A stretch of DNA of 64,000 nucleotides. Source: a virus. The position numbers were made by a program, and so were the translations under genes. Location: IMG/VR virus record IMGVR_UViG_3300024496_000030, positions 19,117 to 83,116 of that record. One strand, 5' to 3'. Under the pieces are notes generated by a model that did no database searches, was not told where the DNA came from, and worked only from the letters and a program-made list of their open reading frames with translations. Of this stretch, positions 12,324 to 61,857 are shown in pieces; position 1 is the first letter of the stretch; each line of letters starts with the position of its first letter.

Positions 12324-14774
12324 TCATAACTCATATGGGTTGCCTACAAAACGAGCATAACGGCTAACTGCTTTTTGCACTGGGCTTGCAGTACCACGTT
12401 TTGTACCTTGTGGATAAGAAAGGGGAACTGGAACAACTTCTGTAGAAGGTGTAGTTGGAAGGGTCACTTCACCTGACAATACTTGCTTTACTAATTCAGC
12501 CCGTTGACGCAGAACCTCTGCTTCTTGAGCGCGGGGGCTACCAGGAGCAGGTGGTTGCCAGGTGGAGAAGCGTGTTCCCATTGCAGCCGGTGCACCACTT
12601 TCACTGATGGCACGGCCTTCGCGGATGCTTGCAGGAATGGTGGCGCCAGGGGTAACGCGACTTGCTACACGACGACCACTTGCACGGGTAGCCTCAATAC
12701 GGCGACGGGCTTGAGCAGCTTGCTGACCACCCATGGCTTGTTGGCTATAAGCAAGACCCGTGGTGGGATCAAGCACTTCAGGTGCTGCTTCTGCCAGTTG
12801 AGCTAAAGCAGCAGGATCAAAAGAGCGTGGATCAATGACTTCAGCACTAACGCCTTTAAACGTGCGGCCTTCACGTCCCATAATTCGTTGGGGTTCTACA
12901 GCAGTGCCGCGTACTGCGCGGACTGCACCACCCAATAGGTCTTCCCGCTTGACCTGGCCTTCTGTCAGGATCTCGCCAGTGTCCACATTTTTGTAGAGGA
13001 AGGGAGTTGCTTCAATGGCACTGCCCTCTCCAGCAGTAAATCCTTCTGCAGCCAGTGCTTCGCGGCGACGACCAACACCACCAACTTCCTGACGACCTGC
13101 ACCACCAGCAGCACGCATCCGGTAGTACTGACTTGTGGGCATCCCTTCCACTTCAGGAACTACACGCGATCCCACAACTTCACCAGTGGTTTCACTGATG
13201 ACGGGAACTTCACGGATGCCTTGAGTAACTTCAGGGCGCAATTTATAAAGAACACCCGTTGCTTCTGCTTGCGCTAGGCGATTGCGTGCCGCTTCACTTG
13301 CAGCAGCTGTTTCACCCAGCAACTTCTTGGTGCGTGGATCTAAGGTTGCAAGTTCTGCTTGAGATGGTTGATAGGTAGAAGGAACACCAAGTTGTTCTAA
13401 TGCACGAGCTTTCATCTTGCTCTGCATGTTTAATGCAGCCTGCAGAGATTCAGCACGGCCCGTTGTAACAGGAACACCGGTTTGTGGATTGACGGTTTGG
13501 CCAAAAGCTTCGTAGAGAGAACCAGTTGGAACACTTTCACCAGAAGGAAGTGTTACACGAATCGGTAAACCCGGTGCTTCGCTGTAGGCAGAACGGATTA
13601 CGCCAGGGTCACCCGTTGCTTGGAAGATTGCTTCTGCTTGTTTCTGTACAGTGGCTGCACGTGGATCAGCAGAAAACACACGTTGCACACCAGAAAGAGA
13701 ACCCTGTGGGATAGGACGTTGCGTTCCTAACAATCCCCTAAGCGTTTCACCAGATTCCACAAAATTTTCTGGAGGCATCTGGCGAATGTTGCGTTCAATG
13801 TTGGTAAAGAACGGAGCATTAGCTGCTTCTGTCACGCGACCCGTCATTGGGTCCAGCACAGAACCTGGCGACAGACGTTGCCGCATTTGTTGCATGGATG
13901 CAGTCTCTAATGCTGGGCTGCTGTATCCAATCTTCTGCGTGAACTGCAAAATGCGGGATTGAATGTCAGGATCAACGCCAGTACCTGTGGTCTGCGTTCC
14001 AATGATGCTTTGTTCTGCTGGAGCAACCATGGTTTGACCGGCGCTACCAAGAGCAGATTCACTCCAGGGGTCTGGAATCCGTGATTTCAGGGACTGATGA
14101 ACACGAACTTCCGCAGGAACCACGTTTTGCGCCCGCACAATGCCGGGTGCAGTGTCATCAATCGCAGAAATGCCGTGTTGTGCTACAGCAAGAACGTTTT
14201 CTGCACCTTCACGGGTAACAAAACTAGGTTCAGCTGCTTCTTTGGCTAGGCCAAGCGCGGATTTAACCTTTGCCTTAGCGCGTTGACCCAGATCACGCAC
14301 CATTCCACCGACGCGTCCCACGCCAAGGTCAGTGCCGGTCAGTTTTTGGGCACCATACACGCCAGCAGCAACAGCACCGACCCCTAACGCCCCTAATGCA
14401 GCCTTTTCAAGGAGTGATTTTGGCTGCTCAGTACCACCAAACCCAGTTTCATAGGCATCATCAGCGTGATGCTGGACATAATGCTGCCCCGTCAGGCTGT
14501 TATTGAGCTGTCCTGCAACCTTTGGGATGTTGTTATCCGGTGTAATAGGCGACTGCAGGAGCGTATTGTCCCCATAATGCCGCACAGAGATGGGTTGATC
14601 GTAAACAATATCTCCTTGAAAGCCTTGAACCTCATCAAAACCGCGAAATTTACCAAATCCTCGGTTGAAATCATACACTTCAGGAGCTAAACGTGCCTTT
14701 TCCTGTGCAGTTTTAGGGTATGGATTGCCAGTTGCAGCTGCCCACAGTGCATAATCTTGCGGAGAAACGGGCAT
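12324..14774 (-). CDS. large putative internal virion/ejection protein
   Basis: ~816 aa A/G/Q/P-rich with one TM-like segment; ATG 14774 preferred over the TTG start at 14813. Confidence 0.7.
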   Translation of the reverse strand: MPVSPQDYALWAAATGNPYPKTAQEKARLAPEVYDFNRGFGKFRGFDEVQGFQGDIVYDQPISVRHYGDNTLLQSPITPDNNIPKVAGQLNNSLTGQHYVQHHADDAYETGFGGTEQPKSLLEKAALGALGVGAVAAGVYGAQKLTGTDLGVGRVGGMVRDLGQRAKAKVKSALGLAKEAAEPSFVTREGAENVLAVAQHGISAIDDTAPGIVRAQNVVPAEVRVHQSLKSRIPDPWSESALGSAGQTMVAPAEQSIIGTQTTGTGVDPDIQSRILQFTQKIGYSSPALETASMQQMRQRLSPGSVLDPMTGRVTEAANAPFFTNIERNIRQMPPENFVESGETLRGLLGTQRPIPQGSLSGVQRVFSADPRAATVQKQAEAIFQATGDPGVIRSAYSEAPGLPIRVTLPSGESVPTGSLYEAFGQTVNPQTGVPVTTGRAESLQAALNMQSKMKARALEQLGVPSTYQPSQAELATLDPRTKKLLGETAAASEAARNRLAQAEATGVLYKLRPEVTQGIREVPVISETTGEVVGSRVVPEVEGMPTSQYYRMRAAGGAGRQEVGGVGRRREALAAEGFTAGEGSAIEATPFLYKNVDTGEILTEGQVKREDLLGGAVRAVRGTAVEPQRIMGREGRTFKGVSAEVIDPRSFDPAALAQLAEAAPEVLDPTTGLAYSQQAMGGQQAAQARRRIEATRASGRRVASRVTPGATIPASIREGRAISESGAPAAMGTRFSTWQPPAPGSPRAQEAEVLRQRAELVKQVLSGEVTLPTTPSTEVVPVPLSYPQGTKRGTASPVQKAVSRYARFVGNPYEL

Positions 14775-15024
14775 TTTTATAAATATACCTAGATATAACG
14801 ATTTTAGGTGCAATCAATACAGTACCAACGCCAGGAGAAACCCCCTAACTGCCTTAGAAATACCCATTTCATGGTAAAAATCCGGGCAGACATCAAGCTC
14901 GCTCTGCTCGCAGGCGGGTGCGAGAGGAAAAAAAGAAAGGGGCGGGGGATATGCTCCCTCCGGTCGCGTTAACAGCCGGAAGAGAGAGTTCTATTCGGTT
15001 GTGTTCTTTATTTTATTTATCGTC

Positions 15025-15186
15025 ATGATCTACAGCGTGGAGATCAAGGAAGCGGGCGATGATTTTAGCCAGGCGTATATGTCTGGCTGCGAGGAGAAGT
15101 TTCATTCGGAGAAGGAAGCAGAAGAATATCTGCTGACGTTCGAAGAATGGGAACGTCCGATGCTTTGCATTCGGAAGTACGAATGA
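15025..15186 (+). CDS. small acidic early protein
   Basis: First plus-strand ORF; ATG 15025. Confidence 0.55.
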   Translation: MIYSVEIKEAGDDFSQAYMSGCEEKFHSEKEAEEYLLTFEEWERPMLCIRKYE

Positions 15187-15227
15187 AGATTAGGGGGAGC
15201 AACCGCTCCCTCCGGTCGCTTTTTGAG

Positions 15228-15352
15228 TTTTCCACAGGCTATTTTTACCCTATTTCCACCCTATTTTCCCTCAAATCCCTGTCATACCAAGGCTTCTGAC
15301 TACTATTTGCCTGGACATGTGTCACAACATGGCTTGCACTTTTTCCACAGGC
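15228..15352 (+). promoter_or_regulatory. two DnaA-box matches (TTTTCCACA at 15228 and 15341) with tandem TATTTYYACCC repeats
   Basis: Match the TTWTNCACA consensus; both extend to TTTTCCACAGGC. Confidence 0.5.
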
Positions 15353-15541
15353 ATCAAATCTTTTTACTGGGATCTCAGCGACGATTTGAAGGCTGTTTGG
15401 CTGTTTGTCAGCCTTATCTTCAACCCTGATTTTTATATAACTAGAAATACTTTTAGCAAGATTACCCAGAAGATTGCCTCCAGGAGCTATTTATTCCTCC
15501 TAGATGCAGTCCTCAGACTGCTGTTCTTTGCTTGTTTTCTC

Positions 15542-15718
15542 ATGGAGAAGTTCGGTGCTGCAGTGTGCTGCGTTGCTATCGGCATGGCAGCTTTCACTCA
15601 GTTAACGCTTCACTTGCTTGATCAAGCTACGGCTGAGCAATGCAAGAACCATGCGTGGCCTGCACACGCTGACCAGGTGCACCGTGACTGGTGCATCGCT
15701 AACAACTACGAACTCTGA
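15542..15718 (+). CDS. small membrane-anchored early protein
   Basis: 3' part of track ORF 15317..15718, from ATG 15542. Confidence 0.55.
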   Translation: MEKFGAAVCCVAIGMAAFTQLTLHLLDQATAEQCKNHAWPAHADQVHRDWCIANNYEL

Positions 15719-15722
15719 TCTC

Positions 15723-15914
15723 ATGATCACGATTACTACTGAAGAAGGTCTCCTTCTCACTGATCAACGTGGCAACTATCTATACGATGGGCGCCAGGGT
15801 GATCCTGTTCTCATCGAAGCGCCAGCAGGTCCAATCCGCTTTGGGTTGGAGGACATGCTGCGTTTCTGGACGACGTACTGCCAGTACGGCGACTATCAAC
15901 TTCACCTGTGGTGA
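15723..15914 (+). CDS. hypothetical early protein
   Basis: 3' part of track ORF 15618..15914, from ATG 15723. Confidence 0.55.
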   Translation: MITITTEEGLLLTDQRGNYLYDGRQGDPVLIEAPAGPIRFGLEDMLRFWTTYCQYGDYQLHLW

Positions 15915-16001
15915 GTTTCCGCTCCCTACGGTCGCTTTCATACTGTATTAATCAGTAGAGAAAGTTCAGAACAAATTGTCCATCATTACCTTCTCATTCC
16001 A

Positions 16002-16229
16002 ATGAATCTCTTTAACAACCTTGTCAAGGCCAGCATTGCCGGTGGCGTTGTCATCGGTGGTGCTGTTGCCTACGCCAAGCTGAATGACGAGCAGCGTCAG
16101 AAGCTCAACTCTGGTGTCAACAGACTGCGCCGCAAGGTGTCAGATCTAATTGCACCAAATGATGGTGTTTATACCATCCCCAAGGAAGTCGAAGCGGAGC
16201 TAGAAGCTCTGCTCAACGACGACAATTGA
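16002..16229 (+). CDS. small membrane-anchored protein
   Basis: N-terminal Gly/Val TM segment. Confidence 0.65.
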   Translation: MNLFNNLVKASIAGGVVIGGAVAYAKLNDEQRQKLNSGVNRLRRKVSDLIAPNDGVYTIPKEVEAELEALLNDDN

Positions 16230-16303
16230 TGGTCCCTCAGAGGGAAGCGCCATGCTTCCTTCTCTGTGATCTTCATTGATCACGTTCTTCGCATATTCCA
16301 TCC

Positions 16304-16528
16304 ATGGAATCTTTCATCTACGAGAAGGGCAACGACGGTTATCTCGTCACCATCCGTGGTGATTTTGCAGAGATGACCAAGGTTGACCTTGACCGTCAGG
16401 TGTCCAAGTACATCCGCTTGGAGGCACCTGTCGAGCATATCCGCTCCAGTGTGAAGAAGCTGCTGCACCAGGGTTATAAGCTGAGCAATCAGCTAGAACT
16501 TGGTTGGCAGCGTTTCATCGAAGCGTAG
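16304..16528 (+). CDS. hypothetical early protein
   Basis: ORF track; stop codon abuts the ribozyme. Confidence 0.65.
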   Translation: MESFIYEKGNDGYLVTIRGDFAEMTKVDLDRQVSKYIRLEAPVEHIRSSVKKLLHQGYKLSNQLELGWQRFIEA

Positions 16529-16594
16529 GACGAAACCGGAGGGTGCTATCCGCTCCCTTCGGTCGCTCCCTGCTATGGGGAGCCTGATGAGTCC
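16528..16594 (+). ncRNA. hammerhead ribozyme, type II
   Basis: GGAC-GAAA-CCGGAGGG..CCCTTCGG-TC^-GCTCCCT..GGGGAGC-CTGATGA-GTCC: complete core, stems I-III intact, GUC cleavage after 16564. Confidence 0.88.
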
Positions 16595-16608
16595 CTGCTT
16601 TGCTCACC

Positions 16609-16866
16609 ATGTCACTTTCTGCTTTCCTCATTAACTTCATGAACCGCCACCGTGATCAGCTACCTGCTTACGTTGGCATTACTCTTGGCATGGGTATCGG
16701 CGGACTCCTGTGCGTTAGCTTGAACAAAGCGATTAATGCCAGGATCCTTGCAACCTGTGACAAGAACCTGAATCAAATCATCTATATCAAGACAGCAGTA
16801 GGTGATAGCTACGGCTGTGTATCCAAGATGGTATTGAACGGGCCACCAGCTCCGATCAAACCATGA
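16609..16866 (+). CDS. membrane-anchored hypothetical protein
   Basis: TM segment YVGITLGMGIGGLLCVSL; ATG 16609. Confidence 0.6.
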   Translation: MSLSAFLINFMNRHRDQLPAYVGITLGMGIGGLLCVSLNKAINARILATCDKNLNQIIYIKTAVGDSYGCVSKMVLNGPPAPIKP

Positions 16867-17460: not shown

Positions 17461-17568
17461 TCTTTTCTTTATCTTTCCAGATGTCTGCACTTTGGGATCT
17501 AGGCCTTAGCTTAGTTCCCTTTCTGCAGGCTTCACTTGCCTGCTTTGTACACCTACCTAGACAACACC

Positions 17569-18018
17569 ATGTCTGCTGCTAACAACGGAAACCTGGTCGG
17601 TACCATCGTGTCCGACATCATGACCAAGAATCCCAACGATTCTCTTTCGGTCACACAGTTCCGTGTTGCTCCGCTCGATGCCAGGGAAGAGGATTCTCCG
17701 CTGCCTGTCATCGCTTACAACGGTATCGGTGACAACATCGCCAAGCGCTACAACAAGGGTGACACTGTTGCCCTGACGACGCGCCTGCGTTATGTGACCT
17801 GGATGACGCCAGAAGGTGAGCCCCGTGGCCGCATGGAAGTTATTGTGACTTCCGTAAACACGGTTCGCCTTGGTCAGATCTCAACAGCCCAACGGACTGC
17901 TGAAGCTGCTGGTGTCATTGAAGCGAATACGGTCAACAAATCGCTTCATCCTGTCGCCGCCGCTGCCACCAGGGCTCCTTATGCGCAGGAACCAACCGCT
18001 GAGGTTGTTCCTTTCTGA
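17569..18018 (+). CDS. ssb: single-stranded DNA-binding protein (single OB fold)
   Basis: KGDTVALTTRLRYVTW..GEPRGRMEV pattern; C-terminal EVVPF. Confidence 0.75.
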   Translation: MSAANNGNLVGTIVSDIMTKNPNDSLSVTQFRVAPLDAREEDSPLPVIAYNGIGDNIAKRYNKGDTVALTTRLRYVTWMTPEGEPRGRMEVIVTSVNTVRLGQISTAQRTAEAAGVIEANTVNKSLHPVAAAATRAPYAQEPTAEVVPF

Positions 18019-18983: not shown

Positions 18984-19264
18984 TCTCTTTGCCTGCACCA
19001 ATCATGACGATTCCTGAGAACATCTTCAAGCTTCAGCTTGATTCCATGCCTACAGAGAAAGACGCTGATCCATACGGTGATGTTCTGTTCTTCTCCAAGA
19101 AGAGTGGATGGATCATCACCAAGCTGGAGGATGCACAGGACATGATCGAGGAGTACAACTGTACTCATTGGACATGGACTCCTGAAATCCCGTCAGCTGA
19201 CGACTATGAACTGGATTCCACCAGGACTGAGCAGCTTAGAAATACAGGCTGGTTGAAAGATTAA
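18980..19264 (+). CDS. hypothetical protein
   Basis: PTEKDAD..GDVL..THW pattern. Confidence 0.65.
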   Translation: MISLPAPIMTIPENIFKLQLDSMPTEKDADPYGDVLFFSKKSGWIITKLEDAQDMIEEYNCTHWTWTPEIPSADDYELDSTRTEQLRNTGWLKD

Positions 19265-46605: not shown

Positions 46606-49221
46606 GTGACGACCGCTACTCCAGAACCCAAGCCCCCGCATAAGCATCTGTCTCCAGGTCAGATCAATCTCGATCTGATTCCGGTTGATTTTCCCCTAAC
46701 TCCCTTGCAGGGGAAGAAAGCTTATCTTCCTGGCTGGACTAGCGACCCCAAAACCGTCAGTGAAATCCGTAAAGAATTAGAAGAAGGCAGGGCAACGGGT
46801 GTTGGTTTGCTCTGCGGACAGTGGAGTAATGACCTTGCTCTGATTTTTGTTGATGTGGATGGAGAAGATGCCATCCCCGTCATTGAAGAGCTGGGTGGTG
46901 GTCCAATTGATGAAATCTTTCCTCCCACACTGACCATTACCAGTGGGAAACCTGGGAAATTTCGCATGTTATTTCGGGTGCCGCCAGAGCGCATCCAACA
47001 ACTGCCCGATAAAGCAACCATTAAAGTTGATAAGGCGCCATGGGAAATCCTTTGGAGATCCCGTCAAGGTGCATTGATGGGTGCACACCCTGATACAGCC
47101 GGATATTCCACAACAGCGCACGGTGGTTTTGAATATGCCAAGCGCCTACCGGAAATGCCGGAATGGTTATATGAAGCCATTGCCCGTGCATATCCCAGTA
47201 GCCGTTACCGGAAACGGAACTCTCCAGCTGGTGCTGTCGTTACCCAAAGCATCACGCTGAACTACGACACAGACTCGAAATATCACCAGGAAACTGTTGT
47301 AGCAGAAGCCCTTGAGTACCTGTCCGCACTATCGGAAGAACGGGCTGATGATTATGAAGAGTGGCTTGCAGTTGGCATGTCACTCCACCAAATTGATGAA
47401 TCCTTACTAGAAGCGTGGATTGAATGGTCCGCTCAGTCCGATCAATTTGAAGACGGTGCGTGTGAGCGCAAGTGGTCTAGCTTTGAGCGGCTGCCTGGTG
47501 GACCAAACCCTGATGGCGCCAGGGGTCTGAAAACGCTTCGGGCTAAAGCAAAGGAAGATGGTTACATTGATATGGGAGGCTTTGTTGTTCCTTCCATTGA
47601 TACCATCAGGAAACGTGCTGCCATGGATGACGACGGCACCGTTGAACATGATGAGGGCAACCTATTTGCTGAACTGTTTGGTGGTGTTGCACTGCCAGAC
47701 GATCTTTTCGGTGAGGATGGTGAGCTAGATCTGGTACGGATTCCTGGTCAACCGTCCTTGCCAGGTGGGAAGAAGCAGAAAGGAGCAACCCGTAATCCGC
47801 CTGCTTCTGAGATTGCTAACTTCATCTCACCCATGTTCAACAAAAATGGGTGGCGATATGACCCTAGATTTGATAGGTTTATGAAATATGACCGCCAACG
47901 CGGTGTATGGAATGAGCAAGATCATACGAAAGATTTTAAGCATGAGGTGCAATTTGTCCTCGGAAACACTTCTCTCCCTGGCGGGTACACTTCTCATCTC
48001 GTTAATGATGTGTGTGCTCTGCTGGAGGGGCACCTCACCGAATACCAATGGAATGACGATCCCTCCCGTCTTGCATTCCGTAACGGTGTCTACGATCTGG
48101 ACACCAAGGAATTCCTAGAGCACAACCCTGATCACTTCATCATCTGGGGTCTAGACATTGATTACATCCCAGAGGCTGATCCCGGTCCCATTACCGAGTG
48201 GCTCTACCGCACGCAATATGGTGATGAGGCCAGGGTTAATGTGCTGCGGGCTTGGCTCCGTGCCTGCTTAGTGGGGCGTGGTAATGAAATCCAGCGCTTT
48301 TTTGAAGTGATCGGCCCAGGTGGTCGGGGTAAATCGACCTTTGCCAACCTCTGCTGTGCTCTTGTTGGTAGCGGGAACTACGCCAGTACTACCCTCAACC
48401 AGCTGGAGCAAAGCCGCTTTGAGCTGTCCTCCATCAAGGGCAAGCGCCTGACGCTAATCAATGATTCGGAGCGTTACGGCGGTTCTGCCCAGACCTTCAA
48501 GGCACTGACCGGTGGTGACTCCCTGCGCTATGAGGAAAAGCTCAAGCCCATCGGTGAACCATTTGTGTACACCGGCATGGTCATGGTAGTTGCTAACGAG
48601 CCCATTCAGACAACGGATAACACCAGTGGTTTGAGCCGCCGCCGCTTAACAATTGAGTTCAATAGGCCCTTATATGAGCGCAATAGTGAAGCCAAGGACA
48701 TGATCAAGATTGAACATGGCCGGGTGTCAGGTCTCTGGAAGGACTACCTGCCCGGTCTGGTCAACTGGGTTATGGAGATGGATGAACAAACCATGCGTCA
48801 GTACCTGCTTGACACCAATGAAATGGTGCCAGCACTGCGCCGCGTTCGTAATAACATCCTCCTCAACAGCAATAACCTGATTGAATGGCTGCAATCAGAA
48901 GTGGTGCAAGCTGATCACGTCACTGCTGTTGGTAAGAAGATTCCGAACGGCAATAAAGAAACCAATGAGCGCTATGTCAATAGCAACTACCACCTCTATC
49001 CCAGCTACTGCGAATACTGTGACGCCACGGGATCGAAAGCTGTGGGTCAGAAACGATTTATCAACCTGCTACTGGATTGCTGCAAGAACCAATTAGGTCT
49101 TGATGAGGTCCGTACCTTTAGTAAAGGTGGCAAACCCTTTGTCAAAGGACTTGCTATCCGTAACTCCGATCAGAAATTTAAAGATCTACCGACAATCCTT
49201 CCAGAAGGAAAAGAAGAGTAA
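46606..49221 (+). CDS. Prim-Pol/PriCT-2 primase fused to D5-like SF3 helicase
   Basis: FVDVDG, DDYEEWLAVGMSLH, FRNGVYDL, Walker A GPGGRGKST. Confidence 0.9.
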   Translation: MTTATPEPKPPHKHLSPGQINLDLIPVDFPLTPLQGKKAYLPGWTSDPKTVSEIRKELEEGRATGVGLLCGQWSNDLALIFVDVDGEDAIPVIEELGGGPIDEIFPPTLTITSGKPGKFRMLFRVPPERIQQLPDKATIKVDKAPWEILWRSRQGALMGAHPDTAGYSTTAHGGFEYAKRLPEMPEWLYEAIARAYPSSRYRKRNSPAGAVVTQSITLNYDTDSKYHQETVVAEALEYLSALSEERADDYEEWLAVGMSLHQIDESLLEAWIEWSAQSDQFEDGACERKWSSFERLPGGPNPDGARGLKTLRAKAKEDGYIDMGGFVVPSIDTIRKRAAMDDDGTVEHDEGNLFAELFGGVALPDDLFGEDGELDLVRIPGQPSLPGGKKQKGATRNPPASEIANFISPMFNKNGWRYDPRFDRFMKYDRQRGVWNEQDHTKDFKHEVQFVLGNTSLPGGYTSHLVNDVCALLEGHLTEYQWNDDPSRLAFRNGVYDLDTKEFLEHNPDHFIIWGLDIDYIPEADPGPITEWLYRTQYGDEARVNVLRAWLRACLVGRGNEIQRFFEVIGPGGRGKSTFANLCCALVGSGNYASTTLNQLEQSRFELSSIKGKRLTLINDSERYGGSAQTFKALTGGDSLRYEEKLKPIGEPFVYTGMVMVVANEPIQTTDNTSGLSRRRLTIEFNRPLYERNSEAKDMIKIEHGRVSGLWKDYLPGLVNWVMEMDEQTMRQYLLDTNEMVPALRRVRNNILLNSNNLIEWLQSEVVQADHVTAVGKKIPNGNKETNERYVNSNYHLYPSYCEYCDATGSKAVGQKRFINLLLDCCKNQLGLDEVRTFSKGGKPFVKGLAIRNSDQKFKDLPTILPEGKEE

Positions 49222-61705: not shown

Positions 61706-61780
61706 GCCCGGATAGCCCAATCGGAAGCAGGCAAGCGATTTAAAATCGCTACAGTGAGGGTTCAAATCCCTCTCCGGGTA
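61706..61780 (+). tRNA. trnL: tRNA-Leu(TAA), short variable loop
   Basis: GCCCGGA/TCCGGGT acceptor, AGCGA-TTTAAAA-TCGCT, GAGGG-TTCAAAT-CCCTC, A73, no encoded CCA. Confidence 0.85.
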
Positions 61781-61783
61781 TAA

Positions 61784-61857
61784 CGGGATATAGCGCAGCT
61801 TGGAAGCGTGCCTGATTTGGGTTCAGGAGGTCGCAGGTTCAAATCCTGCTATCCCGA
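61784..61857 (+). tRNA. trnP: tRNA-Pro(TGG)
   Basis: CGGGATA/TATCCCG acceptor, CCTGA-TTTGGGT-TCAGG, GCAGG-TTCAAAT-CCTGC. Confidence 0.93.

Follow-up and report, generated by a model that had tools for sequence, protein, structure and literature searches.

A covarying 15-nucleotide hairpin between the early genes of a metagenomic phage, shared at one site with a predicted type II hammerhead ribozyme, is probably a gene-boundary signal on the early message

The DNA analysed here is a stretch of 64,000 nucleotides (the window) that forms the final part, positions 19,117 to 83,116, of the 83,116-bp IMG/VR virus record IMGVR_UViG_3300024496_000030, which CheckV estimates to be approximately 97% complete. 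Minus-strand terminase, portal and tail genes extend up to position 14813 of the window, small plus-strand genes follow from approximately 14900 on, and beyond these lie genes for a single-stranded-DNA-binding protein (SSB), DNA polymerase A and a Prim-Pol/D5 primase-helicase. The subject of this study is a 15-nucleotide repeat, GCTCCCTNCGGTCGC (hereafter the 15-mer), every copy of which lies in a gap between the small plus-strand open reading frames (ORFs) of this early region. The plus strand of the window has exact matches at 14953, 15205, 15921 and 16552 and the minus strand has none; a count of four was reached in none of 100 shuffles (mean 0.13), and there is no further match in the entire 83,116-bp record even with one mismatch allowed. 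An earlier note on this DNA had described four copies, confined to the early-gene gaps and with a variable loop base, and the pattern search, the shuffles and the scan of the whole record bear this out. The centre bases of these copies, c1 to c4, are C, C, A and T, respectively, and c2, c3 and c4 lie 19, 7 and 24 nt from the preceding stop codon. A generalised scan added a fifth copy, v0 (GCTCGCTCTGCTCGC), with G-C instead of C-G at positions 5/11. The five copies are:

14897..14911, plus strand: v0, variant hairpin, 9 nt inside the strictly conserved block (AGACATCAA...) with which the early region opens
14953..14967, plus strand: c1, centre C, class A (classes are described below), exact 15-mer match
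15205..15219, plus strand: c2, centre C, class B, exact 15-mer match, after the stop codon of ORF1 and with TTTTT directly behind it
15921..15935, plus strand: c3, centre A, class A, exact 15-mer match, after the stop codon of ORF3
16552..16566, plus strand: c4, centre T, the 3' strand of hammerhead stem III plus GUC and the stem I bases G1.1 and C1.2

The cluster lies at 34 kb of the contig, where the divergent structural and early modules meet. The earlier note had placed it near the first-injected end of the genome; with the cluster at this position and related contigs breaking at differing places, that placement finds no support.

The 829-aa protein next to the cluster and an early protein of 74 aa served to find relatives. 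Four to six copies, syntenic and in the same orientation, were present in all relatives found (8 viral, 15 further viral and 39 metagenome contigs), and, measured by identity of the 74-aa protein, all relatives at 81% or above have the motif and none at 62% or below does. Across relatives the centre base is free to vary, and the flanks diverge. A survey of relatives, which the earlier note had named as a check, thus finds the repeat conserved, both with and without an intact hammerhead. The v0 position is conserved across all close relatives, as is the syntenic position of c1 with its free centre base; in L128 and L130, c1 has a tandem duplicate 32-33 nt apart. Outside the ribozyme, 52 of 52 copies in relatives have the same sense as the early genes and occupy intergenic DNA just past stop codons.

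These 52 non-ribozyme copies from distinct contexts, taken from approximately 30 related contigs, reduce to 14 distinct sequences, which we aligned to examine structure. Both sides change at pairs 2-14 (C-G, U-A and U.G) and 5-11 (C-G and G-C), and pair 6-10 shows C-G and U.G. At the c3 site, for instance, L139 and L148 have GTTCCCTTCGGTCAC, in which C2-G14 has become T2-A14, and L156 has the U.G intermediate. The covariation score was 0.238 compared with 0.098 ± 0.027 in shuffles (0 of 500 reached 0.238), and slid controls gave at most 0.055. Thirteen of the 14 distinct rows leave positions 3/13 and 4/12 unpaired; these are Watson-Crick only at the v0 site of L128 and L130 (GCTAGCTGTGCTAGC), where both mismatches have been turned into pairs; T3, C4, T12 and C13 are almost invariant. 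Because of these covarying pairs, together with the unpaired 3/13 and 4/12, the 15-mer is, on comparative evidence, a hairpin with pairs 1-15, 2-14, 5-11 and 6-10, in which a fixed 2x2 internal loop separates two helices of 2 bp each and the centre of the triloop is free. An alternative register, in which C(UNCG)G would form a UNCG tetraloop, is contradicted by v0 and by the A-T and G-C variants, whose pairing joins position 5, and not 6, to 11, and we rejected it. Both single-step intermediates, at 2-14 and at 6-10, are U.G, which is a wobble only on the plus strand, and no A.C-type intermediate occurs outside the ribozyme, which may count as a weak vote for folding in the RNA sense.

The same variants bear on the idea that the 15-mer is a site in duplex DNA for a phage or host regulator that would turn the early operon on or off, either an asymmetric operator or a promoter-proximal element with v0 overlapping the transcription start. 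Its 15 bp do have a partial, operator-like dyad symmetry about the free central base pair, v0 stands at the start of a conserved leader block, and the upstream arm of class B (below) is readable as an extra inverted half-site. However, a symmetric dimer site would not demand the same asymmetry and orientation in 52/52 copies, and the changes at 5/11 point to structure and not to base read-out: the unrelated L069 group of viruses, described below, shows three different Watson-Crick pairs there in one cluster, and 21 of the 22 scaffold instances other than the searched C/G are Watson-Crick at 5/11. Moreover, one copy is buried in the ribozyme and the others are 60-100 nt away from the next start and have no promoter that we could recognise. 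We regard an operator as decidedly unlikely.

The hairpin does not stand alone but belongs to a composite module at gene boundaries. In class A, the 15-mer is followed 7-23 nt on by a AAGAGAAAGTTC box, an arrangement found in 33 of 48 distinct non-ribozyme contexts; this box stands 38-46 nt ahead of the next ATG, and another short box, TGT(G/T)YC, lies between the two. In this genome no AAGAGAAAGTTC box is present other than those after c1 and c3, and distant relatives lack it. Class B, represented here by c2, has an arm upstream of the 15-mer instead. The corresponding features are:

14979..14992, plus strand: box 1 (GAAGAGAGAGTTCT), 12 nt past c1 and 45 nt before the ATG of ORF1 (15025)
15193..15204, plus strand: class B upstream arm GGGGGAGC with loop AACC, pairing with positions 1-8 of c2
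15956..15967, plus strand: box 3 (TAGAGAAAGTTC), 20 nt past c3 and 46 nt before the ATG at 16002

The class B arm GGGGGAGC is kept in at least nine divergent contexts with a variable loop of 3-4 nt, and its pairing holds a G.U at U7, which is a pair on the plus strand only. Duplex tests for the upstream and downstream arms gave weak results that do not decide the strand. After c2, a 90-nt C/U-rich, G-poor tract (15220-15311) contains repeated CTATTTT(C)CACC-like units; it resembles a Rho-utilisation site. RNA-library contigs from two runs both stop at 15311, which is at most a weak hint because contigs cannot show RNA ends.

The same module stands before quite different ORFs in different relatives. 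Genome similarity breaks at the modules, ORF1 is mostly replaced in relatives, and c2 is covered in 60% of relatives but its flanks in approximately 20%; 40 ends of alignments fall within 25 nt of it. The modules are islands of conservation flanking replaced early ORFs, and in this respect they behave like the PeSL cassettes of T4-type phages, which are composite promoter-early stem-loop (PeSL) signals between early genes (PMC2839356, PMC4122927). The accumulation of alignment ends at the borders of replaced ORFs, together with a copy number that ranges from 4 to 6 and with the tandem duplications, might suggest that the copies are simply substrates or scars of recombination during the shuffling of early-gene cassettes and have no regulatory role. 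Fifteen bases are short for homologous exchange, however, and the invariant internal loop, covarying stems and free loop centre indicate selection on structure, while the spacing between linked box and ATG is fixed. Recombination as the sole explanation is thus very improbable.

The likeness to PeSLs goes further: both are short composite repeats between small early genes in a hyperplastic region, both form islands of identity flanking indels and replacements, and in both a stem-loop is paired with a second conserved box before the next gene. Unlike PeSLs, which hold a sigma-70 early promoter and a terminator-like stem-loop, the modules described here contain neither in detectable form, and their hairpin is only 15 nt long, has a conserved internal loop and usually no U-tract, and precedes the box. 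Indeed, we found no plus-strand sigma-70-like promoter and no canonical terminator at the copies, and the module consensus is without a -10-like element. The missing promoters and terminators fit one long early transcript. One RNA-library contig runs unbroken through v0, c1 and c2; DNA carry-over is possible in such a library, and contigs cannot show starts. In RNA-library runs X16-X18, no contig covers 16524-16581, on both sides of the predicted ribozyme cut, and one contig starts exactly at 14897, neither of which we used as evidence.

At the fourth boundary the 15-mer is part of a predicted type II hammerhead ribozyme, found by a descriptor scan:

16528..16594, plus strand: type II hammerhead, predicted cleavage after C16564
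16528-31 with 16591-94: stem II, GGAC with GUCC
16532-35: GAAA
16535-43: stem III arm ACCGGAGGG
16565-71 with 16577-83: stem I
16584-90: CUGAUGA

Stems I/II/III have 8/4/9 pairs in the descriptor scan, which finds this single hammerhead in the genome versus 5 minimal hits in 100 shuffled genomes. The conserved core is present (CUGANGA, GAAA, the A15.1-U16.1 pair and GUC, with C17 at 16564 as the H17 base) and invariant in the 21 variants, and, as the type II fold demands, stem II is the open one, stems I and III being closed by loops. RNAalifold on the 21 distinct variants recovered all three stems with the core unpaired and found compensatory changes at 8 of 19 pairs. In L148, L152, L140 and L176, stem I has been swapped wholesale, and in L128 and L152 changes within the c4 15-mer are balanced in the ribozyme arm. 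Rfam reported no hammerhead or other family at the copies, from the gathering threshold through E ≤ 10, which is probably due to a long stem III with an 11-nt loop that falls outside the models. Judged by fold and covariation, copy 4 belongs to a genuine type II hammerhead, predicted to cleave itself, in agreement with the earlier note, which had identified it as the 3' strand of stem III plus GUC; the first two bases of stem I can now be added.

The note had also pointed out that the ribozyme arm pairs perfectly with copies 1 and 2, and the arm ACCGGAGGG is in fact the exact reverse complement of CCCTCCGGT in c1 and c2. From this it had suggested that the other copies are remote sites cut in trans by the single hammerhead, an idea that gains some appeal from the GUC followed by GC kept in all copies and from the older-clade substrate strand (see below), from which the repeats could derive. 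We reject it as exceedingly improbable. Stems I and III are loop-closed and the two halves of the core flank the cut site, so that self-cleavage would separate them. An open-armed enzyme strand (CUGANGA, stem II, GAAA and arm) is present neither in this genome nor in nine relatives, the only such arm being the cis arm at 16535, and beyond GUC only GC or GCU (2-3 nt) of the copies could pair with stem I. Furthermore, the arm does not covary with the other copies: changes in the arm track the cis copy only, and the L128 arm fits just 2 of 6 copies. Finally, all copies outlive the ribozyme, persisting in at least five distinct contexts where it is broken, mostly by the HNH-AP2 insertion described below. 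There is no catalytic core near v0 or c1-c3, so these copies cannot self-cleave as hammerheads.

A comparison with more distant relatives places the ribozyme in a wider context. Relatives at 61-62% identity have a hammerhead at the syntenic site and carry no 15-mers, and no hammerhead was found in relatives at 52-58%; by this distribution the ribozyme is older than the repeat. In this older clade the substrate strand of the hammerhead already matches 10-11 of the 15 positions. The 61-62% relatives have two type II hammerheads in early intergenic gaps (L140:1044-1101 and L140:4215-4281, also L142; L176:1870-1946), and in L141 the first of two lacks its 5' half. Clustered type II hammerheads between genes of phages or prophages (Perreault et al., 2011, PMC3088659) are similar in being intergenic, in the early operon and on the sense strand; c4 is part of one, and the more distant relatives carry hammerheads in these gaps instead of 15-mers. 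They differ in that v0 and c1-c3 have no catalytic core nearby. The hammerheads in the early gaps of relatives without the 15-mer suggest that these gaps are sites of RNA processing in the wider group.

In several backgrounds, a free-standing HNH-AP2 homing-endonuclease gene of approximately 565 bp sits at the same point of hammerhead loop I (L127:7153-7715, on the minus strand; the same event in L125, L129, L131, L132, L154, L157 and L186). The insertion replaces the 3' strand of stem I and core base C3, and the endonuclease thus appears to target and destroy ribozyme sequence, unlike the loop insertions of group I introns.

The opposite strand of the repeat requires separate consideration. 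The earlier note had read the minus strand of each copy as GC-GA-CC-GNA-GG-GA-GC and had expected a very stable single-stranded hairpin. As a sequence this is correct, since every canonical copy has CCGNAGG on the minus strand, as a C-GNA-G mini-hairpin should, and the chemistry that had been cited, namely C-GNA-G mini-hairpins, promoters of the N4 virion RNA polymerase (RNAP) with GGA/GAA loops and the ssiA apex CCGAAGG, is present in the literature (PMC13037366). The high stability of the form with C-GNA-G and tandem G.A is likewise taken from the literature (PMC13037366) and was not reproduced by nearest-neighbour folding, which predicts no stable fold for the 15-mer by itself on either strand and gave approximately 0 kcal/mol for the minus strand as DNA and -3.0 as RNA. 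Three proteins of the phage come up in the readings of this hairpin as a priming signal or promoter:

17536-18018: SSB

46606-49221: primase-helicase with Prim-Pol and D5_N domains
12324-14813, minus strand: orphan protein of 829 aa, rich in Ala, Gly, Gln and Pro and of low complexity, first gene of the structural module

The active form might thus be a mini-hairpin of the single-stranded template strand, made of a C-GNA-G triloop, two G-C pairs, tandem sheared G.A pairs and two more G-C pairs; its most plausible role would be as a priming or loading signal for the phage Prim-Pol/D5 or for a host primase, with a promoter less likely. The sheared G.A tandem would directly explain why T3, C4, T12 and C13 are near-invariant, the minus strand of T-centred copies has CCGAAGG and that of the G-C variants a GCGAAGC-type core (PMC13037366), and the phage encodes both the Prim-Pol/D5_N primase and its own SSB. 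On the other hand, the computed folding energy of the DNA is negligible, several genomes tolerate T4 and T9 variants, in which the G.A and GNA features are weakened, and the wobble intermediates favour the plus strand. The spread of the copies over 1.7 kb, between genes and on one strand, is also unlike an origin. The hairpins of RSF1010 ssiA and G4-type primase signals share the apex CCGAAGG exactly, and the archaeo-eukaryotic-type primase and SSB of the phage add to the likeness (PMC13037366), but ssi signals are perfect 40-nt hairpins at an origin, on opposite strands, unlike the five short copies found here on one strand and scattered between genes. The priming role that the earlier note had offered among its single-stranded signals gained no positive support, and we consider a minus-strand DNA hairpin unlikely, if still a serious alternative.

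Its promoter version fares worse. Like the promoters of the N4 virion RNAP, the copies are few, point in the same sense at the start of the early region, and have a template strand that can be drawn as a C-GNA-G hairpin (PMC13037366, PMC4496689). The N4 promoters, however, have a perfect 5-7 bp stem and a GGA or GAA triloop whose central purine is contacted (PMC13037366, PMC4496689); here the stem is split by two mismatches into 2+2 Watson-Crick pairs, the loop centre can be any base, and copies v0, c1 and c2 are included in an RNA-library contig and would thus lie inside the transcript. In promoters of the N4 type the transcript begins approximately 11 nt beyond the loop. A search of the rest of the genome for a virion RNAP, which the earlier note had proposed, found none: the largest ORF, of 908 aa, is tail-fibre-like, no protein matched PF00940, and no DxDGD motif occurs in any frame. 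We also asked whether the 829-aa orphan might be a cryptic RNAP and rejected this, as it has no Pfam or PHROG match and a low-complexity sequence. Because the genome encodes no recognisable RNAP, the N4-type promoter reading is unsupported.

The scaffold also occurs outside the clade. Single 15-mer matches in IMG/VR are at chance level, and we therefore used only multi-copy loci: 17 of 119 loci have at least two copies, versus 0 of 120 for the backwards pattern, and this excess is a point in favour of a signal read as DNA. An AT-rich, unrelated phage group (L069:322-828, L028:10364-10825, L068:1678-2101) has clusters of the scaffold in approximately 1 kb of ORF-free DNA, with C-G, G-C and A-T all found at positions 5/11; the G-C form contains the classic GCGAAGC mini-hairpin on the other strand. 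L062, a complete 13,451-bp virus, has an exact 15-mer in each inverted terminal repeat (159-173 and 13279-13293), 159 nt from the ends, and these copies point inward, against the direction of the terminal genes, which face outward. In L027 and L102 the copies form tandem pairs with a spacing of 33-36 nt, as they do in L128 and L130. In unrelated carriers the orientation of the scaffold to neighbouring genes varies, which, like its location in ORF-free clusters and inverted terminal repeats, favours the minus-strand DNA hairpin. Speaking against that hairpin, the searchable unrelated carriers have no Prim-Pol and no T7-type RNAP; they share with this phage no Prim-Pol, RNAP or other protein beyond generic terminase and DNA-polymerase similarity, and thus offer no link to a primase. 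Around the 15-mer of these carriers we found neither a hammerhead context nor an Rfam family.

It is conceivable, though quite unlikely, that the scaffold GCTC-N-C-TNY-G-N'-TCGC is a nuclease-resistant, SSB-excluding mini-hairpin of the purine strand and a widely shared, self-sufficient module, which unrelated viruses (L062, the AT-rich group and the giant-virus contigs below) would employ at the DNA level in priming, end protection or replication. In the present clade each strand of the 15 bases would then have its own reading, one as a DNA hairpin and the other as a substrate of the ribozyme or a punctuation mark of the RNA. Should the hairpin turn out to be read on DNA, its recurrence in unrelated viruses would point to a general structural signal.

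Two longer repeats among the unrelated carriers contain the 15-mer in another setting. An element of approximately 110 nt (L010:1140-1300, L042:470-640 and 1580-1750, also L011 and L108) holds it between fixed joiners (..TCAACCTC, TGGAC..), followed by a second, freely covarying hairpin and then GCCGGTTAGCTC; this element has no Rfam match and is not next to a tRNA. In giant-virus contigs (L012, L017, L018, L051, L095 and L106) the exact 15-mer is embedded in a larger repeat unit (..CTACGA-15mer-TCTCCG..AATATAAAAGAAAT..), of which a giant-virus metagenome assembly has dozens of copies, distributed over both strands, and the flanks of which suggest a different fold with a GAGC/GCTC stem.

Taken together, these data suggest that the 15-mer copies probably mark gene boundaries on the early message and are neither remote ribozyme targets nor N4-style promoters. 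The specific form that we favour, at a probability of roughly 40%, is an RNA hairpin that is read by a protein and punctuates this message. The 15-mer would be a clade- and strand-specific cis element of a polycistronic early transcript, in which a plus-strand hairpin with a fixed U.C/C.U internal loop and a U-N-Y triloop marks the boundaries between cistrons. The order of the module is stop codon, 7-20 nt, 15-mer, 7-23 nt, AAGAGAAAGTTC box, approximately 42 nt and ATG, and the module is reused before unrelated small early genes. A protein would read the hairpin on RNA, with the fixed internal loop providing specificity and the stems giving shape only, and the effect would be to make each cistron a separately processed or stabilised unit. 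At one boundary the older, cis-cleaving hammerhead would do the same job alone, and here 15-mer and ribozyme substrate strand have been fused into one sequence. We infer the action on RNA, the protein reader and the function in processing or stability, starting from what is observed directly, namely the repeat with its conservation and pairing, the architecture and mosaic flanks of the modules, and the hammerhead. RNA punctuation is favoured because of the sense orientation, the placement after stop codons, the fixed distance from box to ATG, the plus-strand helices with G.U that the 15-mer forms with the class B arm and in ribozyme stem III, the lack of promoters, and the ribozymes in the gaps of relatives.

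Several observations weigh against this punctuation hairpin. The strictly conserved mismatches are exactly what the tandem sheared G.A and R-N-A triloop of the minus strand require, and this is a DNA motif known to be very stable (PMC13037366); the variable gene orientation of the scaffold in unrelated viruses is also a better fit to a role at the DNA level. The argument for the plus strand comes from two U.G variants only, and nearest-neighbour folding gives the isolated 15-mer just -0.5 kcal/mol as plus-strand RNA, no better than shuffles. A comparative fold of the 5' leader gave no larger structure supported by covariation and chose the tetraloop register, at odds with the covariation at 5-11. 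Furthermore, no candidate for the reader protein was found among the early ORFs.

For a hairpin of such size there is an analogy in the boxB element of the lambda nut sites, a 15-nt RNA hairpin that is read by a protein, occurs in several copies in early transcripts, and has stems that give shape and unpaired bases that are read. In the present phage, by comparison, our analysis identified no N-like protein, boxA or terminator context. Repeated regulatory cassettes let many phages organise and reshuffle the genes with which they take over the host, and few such signals have a known reader. The element described here is compact and clearly delimited: its stems covary, its internal loop is invariant, its partner box is fixed, natural variants of it are many, and it has fused with an older ribozyme. 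The natural genomes in which a homing endonuclease has broken the ribozyme moreover allow ribozyme-cut boundaries to be compared with boundaries that have the hairpin only.

As for the remainder of the genome, blastn found no relative among GenBank phages, and the public runs that hold this DNA come from riverine and freshwater metagenomes. The 829-aa orphan, with 67-90% conservation among relatives, is probably a protein of the virion interior or an ejection protein. A Shine-Dalgarno sequence is absent from the early genes examined. Immediately 5' of the ATG at 16609 lies CTGCTTTGC(T/A)CAC (16595-16608), which overlaps a 3' extension of hammerhead stem II. Lastly, two adjacent tRNA genes are located on the plus strand at 61706-61857, with Rfam scores of 57.0 and 65.8 bits.

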